A stretch of 64,000 nucleotides of DNA, from sequence record MN850619.1; one strand, given 5' to 3'. The notes below the pieces were generated by a model. The model was not told where the DNA came from. It searched no databases and saw nothing but the letters and a program-made list of their open reading frames with translations. Below, piece after piece: positions 41,712 to 46,120 of the stretch (within the stretch, counting starts at the first letter, position 1; every line of letters starts with the position of its first letter). This stretch comes from Escherichia phage finno. Position numbers and translations under genes: made by a program.

Positions 41712-41756
41712 ACAAAAAAGGCTCCCGTAAAAAGGAGCCTTAAAATTTTATTTTTC
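41712..41756. terminator. bidirectional rho-independent terminator between convergent blocks
   Basis: AAGGCTCC-CGTAAAA-AGGAGCCTT hairpin flanked by A-run and TTTTATTTTT. Confidence 0.75.
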
Positions 41757-42119
41757 AGTATTCTTTGTGTTCTTTTCAGTAATAGCTTGGAGGGCTGATA
41801 CTGATTGAGCCAGATTGTTAACACTATCAGAGAATTTATCAAGAGTCTTGGTAAGTTTTGCGTTCTCTCCCTTAACATTCTCTAACTGGACTTTCTGGTT
41901 CTCCATCCCTAGCTGAAGCAGCCTCATATCAGACTGTAAATCACGAATAGCTGAATAATTGCTTTTGGAATAATTATCTAGCTGTTGTAACTTTGTTGTG
42001 ATAGACACTTCTTGTTTACCATCCGAAACTTGCATGGTGGTATACATCCCAATAACACTAAAAATACCAACTACAATTGCACCAATATTATTTTTAAAAG
42101 CTTCCTCTAGCCACTTCAT
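41748..42119 (-). CDS. membrane protein with coiled-coil region
   Basis: N-terminal TM segment IGAIVVGIFSVIGMY followed by heptad-rich sequence. Confidence 0.5.
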   Translation of the reverse strand: MKWLEEAFKNNIGAIVVGIFSVIGMYTTMQVSDGKQEVSITTKLQQLDNYSKSNYSAIRDLQSDMRLLQLGMENQKVQLENVKGENAKLTKTLDKFSDSVNNLAQSVSALQAITEKNTKNTEK

Positions 42120-42314
42120 TTATTTCTCCCCCTTAAAAGCTTTTTCTAAGTTATCTACGAACTCATCATCAATAGGTGTGTCTGTCTTACTCGCAAGGTA
42201 TCTTGCAAGCCTAAAGAACACTTTCTCAATCATGTATTCACTTAGAAGGGATAAAATGAGTTTCCAGAAGAAGCTACCTAGATTTTTTAGAAGAATTGCT
42301 AGGATTGTAGGCAT
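42120..42314 (-). CDS. small hydrophobic protein
   Basis: 64 aa with hydrophobic N-terminus. Confidence 0.4.
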   Translation of the reverse strand: MPTILAILLKNLGSFFWKLILSLLSEYMIEKVFFRLARYLASKTDTPIDDEFVDNLEKAFKGEK

Positions 42315-42393: not shown

Positions 42394-44925
42394 TTAAGCA
42401 GTTCTCACCCAAGCCATTAACTTATAGAACTGGTTAGTAACACTAAATGCTGAACCAGAACCTGTACCACCAGTGTTACCGCTAACTGTATGGCTGTGAG
42501 CACCAATACCAACACTGTGAGCATGGTTACCAGCAGAAGCAGCAGTACCAGAGATTGTGTGGGTGTGAGCACCAGCAGCATCAGTGTAACCCGGTCCTAC
42601 ACCAATACTACCACCACCACCACCAGAGTAGTGGGTAGAGTTCTGACCAATCCATGAAATAGAGTGGTTGTGGTGACCAGCAGATGAAGTAGAGCCACTT
42701 ACAGAGTGTGTGTGAGCACCAGTCGTGTTAGTGTTTTTTGTTCCGTAGTCAAACGATGAGGTAGTCGCAGAAAAACTGTGCGTGTGTGAAGGTAAGTTAC
42801 CAACAGATAACGTTACAGAATCTGAACCACCAGTTGTAGCAACATCTGAACCATTTGCTGCTGCAATTCTAATAGTTCTACCAACACCATTATTCAGATA
42901 CGTCCAAGTTAGACCAGGCAGTGCTGTATTAGGGTTAACATTACTGTTAAACCACGTTACAATACCTACTGGATAGATTTTATTAAGGTCTGTAGAGTCA
43001 CTTACTGCCTGTGCAATCTTCTGGTCAGTTTCATCTTTAGTGTATGCACCAATATCTGAAGGGGTTGGTTTTTGCAAACTAGTGTAGTATTTTGCAACTG
43101 TACCCTTCACAATACCTTGTGGTGCATCATCAAATGTCTGTGGAGCTTCAAACAACTGTACACTTGCATTACTAGAAGATTGAACTCTTGATGTTGTGTT
43201 GTTTTGGTATGGACCAACTCTACAGTAAATGTCATAAGCATCGCCAGATGTATTAACATAACCGATATCAGTGATGATGACATTATCTGATGTTCTCCAA
43301 GCCACGGCATTTAAACCTTTTGGATTGTTATTTGATGTTCGTAAAACAACCTCACACTTACCTGCTTGTTGTGGTGTATTGATATTAAAACCTGCCCCAC
43401 CAAACACTTCAATCACCGCAGTAGATGCGGATTGCGGCATTACAACAGTAGCAATTTTAACCCATTTTTCACCGTTTCCATTATTGAAGCCAGTACTTCT
43501 GATTCTCAGGTATCTGCTATCACTAGCACTTCGAGTGAAATATCTAGCATCTAAGTTAGTCCAGTCAGAAGGTTGTACTTGACCAGTAATGTCTAAACTC
43601 TTATTAGCCTTAATTACTGACGACCCAAGAGTAATTTGAGTACCAGAGTAGCTGTTGTTTAAGGCTACATCAGTAGAATTTGTTCCACCTACACCTACCC
43701 ACCACCTAGATACGTTCGCAGTATCCACACCACGGATATATTGCGGCTGCCCCTGTGTCAAGTTCTTTAATACCAAACCCTCATTGTTAGATACAATAGT
43801 TTGCACATTTGTGAAAGTATTAGACACATTAAGTTTAGGAAGATTATTCAAAGTAGCTGCTGGAATGTATCTAGAATCAATGTTAGTCCAGTCAGAAGGT
43901 TGTACTTGACCAGTGATTTTGACAGTCTTACTAAATGTTACACCAGACGCGTTTAATTTAATGGAAGTGTCCCCCTTGTAATCATAAATTGTGATATTAG
44001 AGGTTACATCACCTTTACCAATATACCACAAATTATTGTTTTCACTGTCCTTTGCTAGGATGAACAGAGTCTCATTGACCGTTTTATTTTTTAGAATGAT
44101 AGCAGCACCATCAGAGTTCACATTGACATTATTACTGAATGTGTTTAAACCACTGAAGGTGTTATTACCAACTAGCTGCGCAAATCTCTGATTAGCTGCT
44201 GTCTGAGTAAAGTATCTAGCATCTAAGTTAGAGAAGTCAGAAGGCTGAACTTGACCAGTGATTGCTAAAGATTTATTAACAGAGATATTGCTTGCAACAA
44301 TCACTGCTGAGTTGTATTTGCTGTTATACAGGCTTACTGCATCCTCGCCATTGCTACCAATACCAACCCACCATCTAGCTGAACCATCTAGGTTTACACC
44401 CTCAATGTATTGTGCATTATTTGCAATCTGGTTTCTAAGGCGAAGTGCATTACCATCACTTTGAATGTTCTGATTTCTAGAGAATGTGTTTGTTACAGCA
44501 AGCCTTGCATATCTTGCATCGTTCTCTTCATTGGTTCTCATTCCAAGCTCATTAGGACTTGGCTTATTCAAAGTGTGGTAAACAGTTGCAGACCTTGAAG
44601 CATCTGCAATAGTTAGTTTAAGACCGTTTGCATTGATTTTAAAAGCCTTTAAAACATCCCCCATAGTAATCTCAGAAGAGCCTGTAGGGTCAAATACCGC
44701 CTTACCACCATAAAGTAACTTGACAATTCCTAAGTCACCCGTCATAGTACTGCCAGCAATCTGAACAAATCTTTCAAGTTTAAAAGATGCTAAGAAGTCT
44801 TGATAGGTCATTCGACGGTCTTCATCACCCAGCATTTCAGGTCTCTTTTTAACCCTGACATGAAGAAGGTCGTCTGAACGAATTGTATCAATTGAGTTTA
44901 ATTCACTCAACTTGTAATCTGCCAT
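42394..44925 (-). CDS. long tail fibre protein with His-box C-terminal domain
   Basis: 843 aa; three internal repeats ITGQVQPSD(W/F)xN(L/I)DxRY; C-terminal HxH repeats ending MAWVRTA. Confidence 0.75.
43542..44275. repeat. three dispersed ~52 bp direct repeats inside tail fibre gene
   Basis: Near-identical stretches at about 43542-43593, 43869-43920 and 44224-44275. Confidence 0.7.
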
Positions 44926-44944
44926 TATAAATTTTCCTCTTAAA

Positions 44945-44962
44945 AGGGGCTATACAGCCCCT
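44945..44962 (-). promoter_or_regulatory. stem-loop between the two tail fibre genes
   Basis: AGGGGCT-ATACA-GCCCCT hairpin; weak T-run (TTTTAAG) then GAGGA RBS. Confidence 0.4.
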
Positions 44963-44971
44963 GTAAAGAAA

Positions 44972-46120
44972 TTAAGCTGTTCTCTGCCATACATACAATA
45001 CGAAGGATGGCTGTTCAACGCTAAATGCTTGACCAGAACCAGTTGTGCCAGTTGTGCCAGAGTGCGAATGCTCACCTGCTCCGGTTACTGTTACTGTTGC
45101 TGAGTGGTTGTGGGAACCAATTGCAACAGAATGGCTGTGAGCACCAATCCCAACTGTGTGATTATGCGCACCAATTGCTACAGAGTGAGCGTGGTTGTTA
45201 GCTGTTGTCAGCGTAGCTCTTGGGTCATAGCTTGCCCCCTCAACTGATAAACCTCTCCAACCACCATCAGCATAGCCACGATTAATGAATGTTGTTTGTG
45301 TTAAACCAGAAGCACTGGTTGTTCTGTTACCATAGTCATAAGTAGATACAGTCTTTGTTCCATAATCAAACGTTGTAGTCCCTTTAGTACCGTAGTCAAA
45401 AGCACTGATAGAGGCCGTTGCACCGTGTGTGTGACCACCACCAGTGACGTATACTGAGTGAGTATGTGCAGGAATGTTGTTAACTGTCAGTGCAGTAGTC
45501 TGTGAACCAAACGTTGAACCAACTGGCCTAGAAGCACTATCATAACCTACAAGTGCTCTTCCTTTTGAAACTAACTCCCAAGTACCTCCACAAATTAAAT
45601 ATGTAGAAGGGTTTGCAGGATTCATAGAGAGATGGATAGTACCTACTGGATAAGAAGCCTGAACAGCCTTGTACAAGTTATTTACTGCTCTTGCTGTAGC
45701 ATACTTATCTGCATCCTCATTATAAAGGTTAGATGTCACCCAGTTCTGAACATTACTCAGTCCAACCTGTGCCTTAGTGGTATTGTGTGGGTTGCTCTTA
45801 TCATCAATATGCTGTTGAATAAGATTATTAACCTCTTCTGAAGACATAATTTGTAGATTTGCTCTTGCCTCAGCTACATTAACAATGTCTGATAAGTTAT
45901 TTTCAGCAACTAACTGGAGAGCATTAATAACGTTATCTAAACCAATTTGTGTCTTAGTAACACCATGAGGGTTATTTCTTAGGCTTGAGTGTGGAGCAAG
46001 TAATTGCTCAAGAGTACATCTCTTATCCTCGATACCCTGTTTAAGATGGAAGATATCACTAAGGTCAATTGGTAAGGCTGCTTGAGGCAAGGCACTAATT
46101 TGAATTTCACCTACTGCCAT
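44972..46120 (-). CDS. tail fibre protein with His-box C-terminal domain
   Basis: 382 aa; FDYGTK repeats and HxH repeats; C-terminus LYVWQRTA similar to the neighbouring fibre. Confidence 0.7.
   Translation of the reverse strand: MAVGEIQISALPQAALPIDLSDIFHLKQGIEDKRCTLEQLLAPHSSLRNNPHGVTKTQIGLDNVINALQLVAENNLSDIVNVAEARANLQIMSSEEVNNLIQQHIDDKSNPHNTTKAQVGLSNVQNWVTSNLYNEDADKYATARAVNNLYKAVQASYPVGTIHLSMNPANPSTYLICGGTWELVSKGRALVGYDSASRPVGSTFGSQTTALTVNNIPAHTHSVYVTGGGHTHGATASISAFDYGTKGTTTFDYGTKTVSTYDYGNRTTSASGLTQTTFINRGYADGGWRGLSVEGASYDPRATLTTANNHAHSVAIGAHNHTVGIGAHSHSVAIGSHNHSATVTVTGAGEHSHSGTTGTTGSGQAFSVEQPSFVLYVWQRTA

Follow-up and report, generated by a model that had tools for sequence, protein, structure and literature searches.

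Short and long tail fibres of Escherichia phage finno: probable T4 gp37-type tips and probable cassette exchange at shared motifs

The closest described systems for two adjacent tail-fibre genes of Escherichia phage finno (sequence record MN850619.1) are the fibres of the Bas63 phage, of Felix O1 and of T4. The two finno genes occupy positions 42394-46120 of the 64,000-nucleotide stretch that was analysed (the window) and are called here the short tail-fibre (STF) and long tail-fibre (LTF) genes. Both fibres of Felix O1 were reported to be T4 gp37-like at their C-termini (Whichard et al., 2010; PMC3185647). A cryo-electron microscopy study of Bas63 (Escherichia phage JohannRWettstein) in 2025 identified gp26 as a short fibre of 430 Angstrom and gp27 as a long fibre of 630 Angstrom (PMC12609058). 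These fibres have a collar, a small head and a needle with conserved HxH motifs, seven in gp26 and six, including HHxH, in gp27; a fold-back topology of needle and head was reported for the short fibre, and the long fibre contains beta-helix repeat domains that resemble T4 gp34 (structure 5NXH was cited; PMC12609058). A similar picture was obtained for Sf14, a phage of the sister genus, where the homologue gp52 was modelled as a fibre and the single-protein fibres are without chaperone homologues (PMC11821841). PMC10612097, PMC11482910 and a receptor-prediction preprint of 2026 have no specific information about the fibres treated here. In T4 gp37, the collar D10 comprises residues 811-881 and 1010-1026, the needle or stem residues 882-931 and 960-1009, and the receptor-binding tip residues 932-959; the needle holds seven iron atoms, and H929 and H931 were found by experiment to be irreplaceable iron ligands (PMC6957217). 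The two-fibre architecture with T4-like His-box tips is already described for proteins near-identical to those of finno.

Bas63 and finno agree in genus, gene order, two-fibre architecture and the presence of three PF20744 repeats, and the tip of Bas63 gp27 is nearly identical to the finno LTF tip, the HHNH motif included. The two long fibres carry different alleles of repeat domains 1 and 3, and the pre-collar domain, which is PF12604 gp37_C in Bas63, is a non-homologous all-beta domain in finno that is 60 residues longer. The Felix O1 proteins gp76 and gp77 (FO1a) are orthologous to the finno STF and LTF pair. The Felix O1-type STF has nine HxH, whereas the finno STF has seven; the head of the FO1a STF is almost identical to that of its own LTF (31 of 32 residues), whereas the two finno heads are unrelated in sequence; and the FO1a LTF has 779 residues, with the short type of middle domain, compared with 843 in finno.

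The collar, needle and head of T4 gp37 are homologous to those of the finno fibres, with a head of similar length inserted between the needle strands (approximately 28-30 residues in the LTF), but the pattern of HxH differs, with six in the LTF and seven in the STF against seven in T4. The shaft repeats of T4 gp34 and gp37 are PF20744 domains, as in the finno LTF, and the copy number and linker motif are specific to fibres of the Ounavirinae. The finno fibres are single proteins placed directly on the baseplate, whereas T4 has a kinked fibre of four proteins. T4 also has the chaperone gp38; no gp38-like chaperone was found in the 64 kb window using tblastn and phmmer (gp57A and Tfa-type chaperones were not searched for), and dependence on gp38 characterises the T4 system more than it does the tip fold. 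The receptor expected for the Felix O1-type genus is the lipopolysaccharide (LPS) core and not OmpC as in T4 (PMC8594841).

We consider it very probable that the products of the two genes are the short and the long tail fibre of finno, both with T4 gp37-type tips, and that cassettes are exchanged at motifs shared between them and their relatives.

The shared C-terminal module

The C-termini of the STF and LTF proteins (about 230 residues each) were aligned using BLASTP with composition correction, giving 31% identity over 259 columns (E=6e-17). The alignment extends past the His-rich part into the non-repetitive collar on either side (YPVG..., GGTW/GLTW and AFSV...W.RTA), and the similarity is therefore no low-complexity artefact. 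Searches of the PDB with phmmer matched the T4 gp37 tip (PDB entry 2XGF) to residues 708-822 of the LTF (E=3.7e-19) and to residues 146-352 of the STF (E=1.5e-14). T4 gp37 was also recovered from phage genomes by tblastn with the tip as the query. No chain of T4 gp12 was among the PDB matches at E<=1 for either protein and, as judged from these searches, the STF is a short gp37-like fibre rather than a gp12 homologue.

The tip region of T4 gp37 contains exactly seven HxH motifs, at 883, 915, 929, 966, 980, 989 and 998. In a joint alignment, the LTF motifs at 714, 738, 752, 787, 801 and 810 fall on T4 883, 915, 929, 966, 980 and 989 (six of the seven T4 positions filled), and the STF motifs at 219, 310, 319, 328 and 337 fall on T4 883, 966, 980, 989 and 998 (five of seven). 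The order in both finno proteins is ascending HxH, variable insert and descending HxH, placed between two collar halves, and the LTF segment of approximately 30 residues between HxH-752 and HxH-787 corresponds to the T4 tip subdomain. The LTF collar was recognised through its alignment to the STF and T4 gp37. In total there are six HxH in the LTF (that at 752 being HHNH) and seven in the STF; the proteins end in ...KLMAWVRTA and ...VLYVWQRTA, respectively. The last 180 residues hold 14 of the 16 histidines of the LTF and 14 of the 20 of the STF.

An earlier note on this DNA, made from the sequence alone, had proposed two adjacent tail-fibre genes that share a C-terminal module with repeated HxH motifs and a similar terminal sequence (MAWVRTA and LYVWQRTA), reminiscent of the His boxes of T4 fibre tips. 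This description holds well. Both proteins belong to PHROG tail-fibre families and have counterparts in Bas63 that were seen by cryo-electron microscopy (PMC12609058); the two C-termini align significantly, both match 2XGF, and their HxH align column for column with those of T4. The three examples that the note gave (GAHTHSV, AGHHNHS and GAHSHTV) are all located in the LTF. From these alignments, the module is judged to be homologous to the T4 gp37 receptor-binding tip and not merely reminiscent of it.

The note had also asked whether the histidines are conserved in homologues, and for the most part they are. All seven HxH of the STF (14 histidines) are invariant in 35 homologues, 33 of which are distinct. 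Four HxH of the LTF are invariant in 119-120 of 120 homologues. The two that flank the LTF head go with the type of tip: they are jointly present in 80 of the 120 and jointly absent in approximately 37-39, which have a different, larger tip. The extra histidine of the HHNH motif is not conserved in the 120 homologues.

Mosaic relationships of the LTF gene and exchange of cassettes

The fibre region and 4 kb flanks were aligned with seven relatives. In the flanks, the identity is 93-97% for nearly all of these relatives (87% for ZX4221 in the baseplate flank). Within the LTF gene, nucleotide comparison with the same relatives separates four segments with different nearest relatives (Table 1). 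In the segment that encodes the middle domain, Barry and FO1a are unalignable and are 60 residues shorter. The nearest relative switches at 43867-43917, 43540-43590 and 43036-43074, which are conserved linker motifs. Apart from the finno protein itself, no LTF match in a large protein collection exceeds 86% identity overall. One of the relatives, 'Campylobacter phage A132' (MG065664.1, marked UNVERIFIED), is a Felixounavirus by sequence, with flanks 93-97% identical to the window, and its Campylobacter host label is doubtful.

The middle domain of the LTF (residues 481-615) has no Pfam match, gave only a spurious match (E=0.4) in a profile search of the PDB and showed no similarity to the Bas63 LTF beyond the linkers. 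In PHROG, five other fibre families contain internal stretches that match it (E=1e-22 to 1e-35). An AlphaFold2 model of the domain is all-beta (pLDDT 74.9), and the best Foldseek match of this model is WceF (PDB entry 6TGF), a tailspike-like glycan-degrading enzyme (E=1e-7, TMq 0.62), followed by Acinetobacter phage tailspikes. The match to WceF is moderate, and glycan binding by the predicted domain is not claimed. Bas63 and Barry both carry PF12604 gp37_C at this position. In view of this replacement, the account of the shaft differences as pure sequence variation (PMC12609058) needs qualification.

In P0014, a Felixounavirus-type LTF from a public assembly, a stretch of 97 residues (722-818) matches T4 gp37 898-994 at 93% identity; its borders are GIGAH(S/T)HTV on one side and a 10-residue motif on the other. 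By this comparison P0014 is a natural inter-family tip chimera, in which a Felix O1-type fibre carries a T4 tip. A weak similarity to T4 is also found in its shaft (residues 319-430 against T4 gp37 375-493; E=0.007).

The two fibre genes of one genome may also be partners. In BPS17L1 (L004), both tips contain the same 189 nucleotides (LTF nucleotides 2173-2361 and STF nucleotides 757-945), and in L029 the STF and LTF tips have 113 identical nucleotides in common. The DNA for the needle top and head is 80-85% identical between STF and LTF over approximately 200 nucleotides in FO1a, Mushroom, L021 and L027. Residues of the head signature co-vary within genomes, with an identity of 0.92 within and 0.85 between genomes (n=6), a value reached by 133 of 10000 permutations. 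The shared tracts together with this co-variation indicate gene conversion between the paralogous tips in the Felix O1-type Salmonella relatives. Identical or near-identical DNA for needle top and head is shared by the two fibre genes within each of BPS17L1, L029, L021, L027, L007 and L002.

His-box-mediated swapping of adhesins in T-even phages is said to have been described by Sandmeier in 1994 and by Tetart et al. in 1996 and 1998. As in that system, GxHxH-coding stretches flank the variable receptor-binding segments in P0014, BPS17L1 and L029 and mark the cassette junctions. Two features differ from T-even swapping: two paralogous fibre genes within a single genome are among the partners, and the shaft linkers form a second class of junction.

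In the model that we propose, each fibre would be a trimer of identical chains whose N-termini fix it to the baseplate. The tip would be a collar that holds a long inserted needle of six strands; the chain would ascend, form a small variable head and descend. The LTF head (residues 755-784), and likewise that of the STF, is presumed to contact the receptor, which would be the LPS core for this genus. Each HxH, contributed by three chains, may bind a single metal ion along the axis of the needle, as in T4, where six histidines hold the iron in octahedral coordination, and such sites, about six in the LTF and seven in the STF, would staple the trimer together. The LTF shaft is predicted to consist of three beta-helix repeat domains joined by conserved linkers, with an all-beta knob domain after them. 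These linkers, together with the His-box and FDYGTK stretches, would act as patches of shared homology, between which shaft domains and needle-plus-head cassettes have been swapped among related phages and, in some relatives, from one fibre gene to the other in the same genome. Recombination through shared modules is a reading supported by sequence comparison and not by experiment.

As a discovery this carries little weight: the genes were annotated as fibres, the T4 gp37-like tips have been known from Felix O1 since 2010, and a structural description for a near-identical relative followed in 2025. The practical value lies in phage engineering and host-range prediction, for which the limits of the cassettes are now mapped, namely the three linkers named above and the FDYGTK and GIGAHxH motifs around the needle and head. 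Natural chimeras across these junctions suggest that they are ready-made sites for receptor-specificity swaps in therapeutic or diagnostic Felixounavirus phages. The linker breakpoints, a repeat cassette that has moved (see below), the replacement of the middle domain, the tip conversion in Salmonella-type relatives and the T4-tip chimera are modest additions to the theme of modular tail-fibre evolution.

Several observations weigh against the proposed reading. The STF allele has no equivalents of the T4 motifs at 915 and 929 and has two extra HxH without a T4 counterpart, so that the metal count and needle geometry of the STF may differ from those of T4. The LTF scores 23.7 bits against Gp10_C, below the Pfam cut-off of 27 bits, and residues 806-818 score 16.7 bits against Phage_fiber (PF03335, the GxHxH 'His box'), for which the cut-off is 20 bits; the latter model is only 14 positions long, and the GxHxH motifs are visibly present despite the score. 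An AlphaFold2 monomer model of the LTF tip (residues 609-843, 12-row alignment) was unusable (pLDDT 39.6, pTM 0.18), as is expected for an intertwined trimer. We infer the fold, the trimer fold-back and the metal binding from homology and from the published work on Bas63, in which the fibre density permitted only domain-level fitting of predicted models (PMC12609058). The STF and LTF tips of finno share only an 18-nucleotide exact tract, and 37 nucleotides at 86%; with so few identical bases, recombination between the two genes in finno itself would be rare. Finally, the association with hosts is a correlation only. The LTF tip allele of the window (42394-43050) is 91-96% identical in nucleotides to that of approximately 33 phages, nearly all of which have rough E. 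coli laboratory strains (K-12, C or DH5alpha) as their isolation host, and Salmonella phages carry a different LTF tip (<=85% nucleotide identity to the window allele); this pattern fits a role in host range. The earlier note had proposed that shared modules and internal repeats are substrates for recombination that changes host range. The first part is supported by the breakpoints, the moved cassette, the tip conversion and the T4-tip chimera, and the second goes no further than this correlation.

A more extended reading treats the tips as a recombining pair. Conversion would keep the same head on both fibres in Felix O1-type Salmonella phages (one receptor, twelve fibres), the heads would have diverged into two specificities in phages of the finno and Bas63 type, and a lineage would toggle between the one-receptor and two-receptor states through conversion, or through import of cassettes, at the linker and His-box motifs; the middle domain would in addition be a second, lateral glycan-binding site that affects host range independently of the tip. 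We regard this as possible but doubtful.

Receptor-binding proteins evolve fast, and the patchwork of the LTF could in principle reflect diversifying selection on a vertically inherited gene, with no recombination at the conserved motifs. The low conservation of the beta-helix repeats has indeed been ascribed to 'substantial sequence variation between species' (PMC12609058). Such a history is very improbable here. The nearest relative changes abruptly along the gene, from Barry to A132, then to BPS17L1 and ZX4221, and then to Barry and momo, a pattern that point mutation cannot yield, and the Pfam and PHROG families matched by the middle domain vary from phage to phage. Furthermore, repeat 3 of the window (43540-43830) is closer to repeat 1 of Bas63 (69% amino-acid and 80% nucleotide identity) than to repeat 3 of Bas63 (only 44%) or to repeat 1 of the window itself (42%), with A132 closer still at 90% amino-acid identity. 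One cassette therefore occupies different repeat positions, the first in Bas63 and the third in finno. Exchange of cassettes at the linkers accounts for these observations better than vertical descent does.

Shaft repeats and the identity of the short fibre

The motif ITGQVQPSD(F/W)xN(L/I)DxRY occurs at residues 222, 337 and 446 of the LTF. Its DNA forms a three-copy family (D2) of 74 nucleotides with 78-82% identity. The motifs are the best-conserved ends of three whole domains of approximately 95-100 residues, which lie 109-115 residues apart. Pfam assigns these stretches to PF20744 gp37_trimer (three stretches, 239.8 bits, E=1.8e-72, with a gathering threshold of 21.7 bits), and the LTFs of Barry and Bas63 also have three PF20744 repeats. 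A phmmer search of the PDB with the LTF detected no solved structure for these repeats.

Three direct DNA repeats with a regular spacing of 327 and 345 nucleotides, and LTF lengths that range from approximately 779 to 856 residues among relatives, might suggest a recent tandem triplication specific to finno, in which gain and loss of copies tunes the reach of the fibre. This is very unlikely, given that the three domains are mutually only 36-42% identical and show no detectable DNA similarity outside a linker of 43-74 nucleotides. The three anchor motifs stand at the same positions in eight of nine genomes (the window included; FO1a has two exact matches), and the 60-residue difference in length maps to the replacement of the middle domain and not to the number of repeats. 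The internal triplication is, to judge from this divergence, ancient and one of beta-helix domains. The earlier note had listed three repeats of about 52 bp encoding this motif; the motif is present three times as stated, and the repeats are only the ends of much longer domains that were triplicated long ago.

For the STF, the sole Pfam match above threshold is PF21939 Gp10_C (65.8 bits, E=1.1e-17, gathering threshold 27 bits), and T4 gp10 C-terminal domain chains in the PDB are also matched (E=8e-6 to 6e-4). The protein of 382 residues could on these grounds belong to the baseplate wedge as a T4 gp10-like component that shares only the gp10/gp12-type collar domain with a true fibre. We consider this highly improbable: the gp37 tip gives a far better match, and one that extends over the needle, a part that gp10 does not have; the best PHROG of the STF is a tail-fibre family (E=6e-130); and Bas63 gp26, which is 98% identical and has the same seven HxH, was seen as a fibre (PMC12609058), as Sf14 gp52 was modelled to be (PMC11821841). 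The weakest alternative, that the resemblance of the two C-termini is compositional and that Gly/Ser/Thr/His-rich repeats arose independently without a shared ancestral module, has next to no credibility, for although the region is repetitive, with an array of 27-nucleotide period in the DNA of the STF descending needle (45102-45188) and DNA similarity only in stretches of 20-50 nucleotides, it is refuted by the composition-corrected BLASTP alignment with its flanking collar, by the independent matches of both proteins to 2XGF over collar and needle and by the joint alignment with T4, and tips in relatives are up to 100% identical over 189 nucleotides.

Feature coordinates and gene context

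The coordinates of the features are given in Table 1. In the ascending needle strand and head of the STF (residues 218-306), the nucleotide identity to Salmonella-type relatives drops to 50-65%; the identity of the LTF head to these relatives is 27-60%. The N-terminal half of the STF contains two copies of NPHxxTKxQ(I/V)GLxNV (residues 50-64 and 109-123; 45754-45972), which probably correspond to the 'triple alpha-helix and turn' motif known from the Bas63 fibres.

Table 1. Features of the STF and LTF genes of the window, with segments of the LTF gene by nearest relative (residue numbers are those of the encoded proteins)
Feature	Coordinates	Strand	Evidence and remarks
STF gene, 382 residues, homologue of Bas63 gp26 and Felix O1 gp76	44972..46120	(-)	Open reading frame (ORF); phrog_2097 tail fiber, E=6e-130
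STF N-terminal part, residues 1-145, putative baseplate-binding region and shaft	45686..46120	(-)	Strongly conserved in 35 homologues; role suggested by the Bas63 structure (PMC12609058)
STF collar, N-terminal part, residues 146-217	45470..45685	(-)	Aligns with T4 gp37 D10 collar and gp10 C-terminal domain; matches 2XGF, 2FKK, 5HX2
STF ascending needle strand and head, residues 218-306	45203..45469	(-)	HxH 219, 230; FDYGTK repeats; variable head
STF descending needle strand, residues 307-355	45056..45202	(-)	Five HxH: 310, 319, 328, 337, 351
STF collar, C-terminal part, residues 356-382	44975..45055	(-)	End ...AFSVEQPSFVLYVWQRTA; aligned with LTF and T4 gp37
Intergenic spacer between STF and LTF	44926..44971	(-)	7-bp GC hairpin GGGGCUGUAUAGCCCC, then UUUU, then LTF ribosome-binding site
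LTF gene, 843 residues	42394..44925	(-)	ORF; phrog_4277 tail fiber, E=0; 71% identical to Bas63 gp27
LTF N-terminal putative baseplate-binding region and first linker, residues 1-145	44491..44925	(-)	85-100% nucleotide identity to all seven relatives; role suggested by PMC12609058
LTF repeat domain 1, residues 146-238	44212..44490	(-)	PF20744, best stretch residues 158-247; 100% amino-acid identity to Barry cassette
LTF repeat domain 2, residues 255-353	43867..44163	(-)	PF20744; D2 copy 43860-43933; mosaic breakpoint in end motif 43867-43917
LTF repeat domain 3, residues 369-462	43540..43821	(-)	D2 copy 43533-43606; breakpoint in end motif 43540-43590
LTF middle all-beta domain, residues 481-615	43081..43485	(-)	Exchangeable cassette
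LTF conserved 13-residue linker, residues 618-630	43036..43074	(-)	Mosaic breakpoint; identity to Barry climbs from 53-63% to 90-100% across it
LTF collar, N-terminal part, residues 645-712	42790..42993	(-)	Aligned with T4 gp37 and STF; nearly invariant in 120 homologues
LTF ascending needle strand, residues 713-754	42664..42789	(-)	HxH 714, 738, 752 (HHNH)
LTF head (tip) subdomain, residues 755-784	42574..42663	(-)	Most variable part; aligns with T4 tip subdomain 932-959
LTF descending needle strand, residues 785-815	42481..42573	(-)	HxH 787, 801, 810
LTF collar, C-terminal part, residues 816-843	42397..42480	(-)	Invariant in homologues; aligned with STF and T4 gp37
LTF segment, residues 1-346			Nearest relative Barry, 97-100% nucleotide identity
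LTF segment, residues 356-440 (repeat 3)			Nearest relative 'Campylobacter' phage A132, 83-100% nucleotide identity
LTF segment, residues 456-622 (middle domain)			Nearest relatives BPS17L1 / ZX4221, 90-97% nucleotide identity
LTF segment, residues 623-843 (collar, needle, head)			Nearest relatives Barry / momo, 87-100% nucleotide identity

The locus encloses exactly two ORFs, both on the minus strand and separated by a spacer of 46 nucleotides. The LTF has the same sequence (100% identity) as the protein recorded for Escherichia phage finno as 'putative tail fiber protein', and 234 phage records, nearly all Felixounavirus, match the fibre region. By these matches, the window is assigned to a known, deposited Felix O1-like myophage genome of the genus Felixounavirus. 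A tRNA scan of the whole 64 kb window detected none. Felix O1 has been reported with 22 tRNA genes; those of finno presumably lie in the part of the genome beyond the window.

The hairpin of the spacer is present in the centroid fold, and the fold is not significant (z=-1.37). It was considered as an attenuating terminator and rejected on this score, because only four U follow the stem and because the terminator scan did not flag it; the hairpin might reduce read-through into the LTF gene, although it is not statistically distinctive.

Directly upstream, on the same strand, are baseplate genes, among them those for proteins of 100 and 285 residues and for a Baseplate_J protein of 489 residues. 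Downstream of the LTF gene, in the same operon, are two small ORFs (41748-42314) encoding proteins of 64 and 123 residues. Both products belong to PHROG families of unknown function, neither is chaperone-like (no chaperone family was matched in Pfam or PHROG) and the longer is labelled 'holin' in some relatives. A strong bidirectional terminator-like hairpin (41718-41741) separates the end of this late operon, on the minus strand, from the thymidylate synthase gene on the plus strand.

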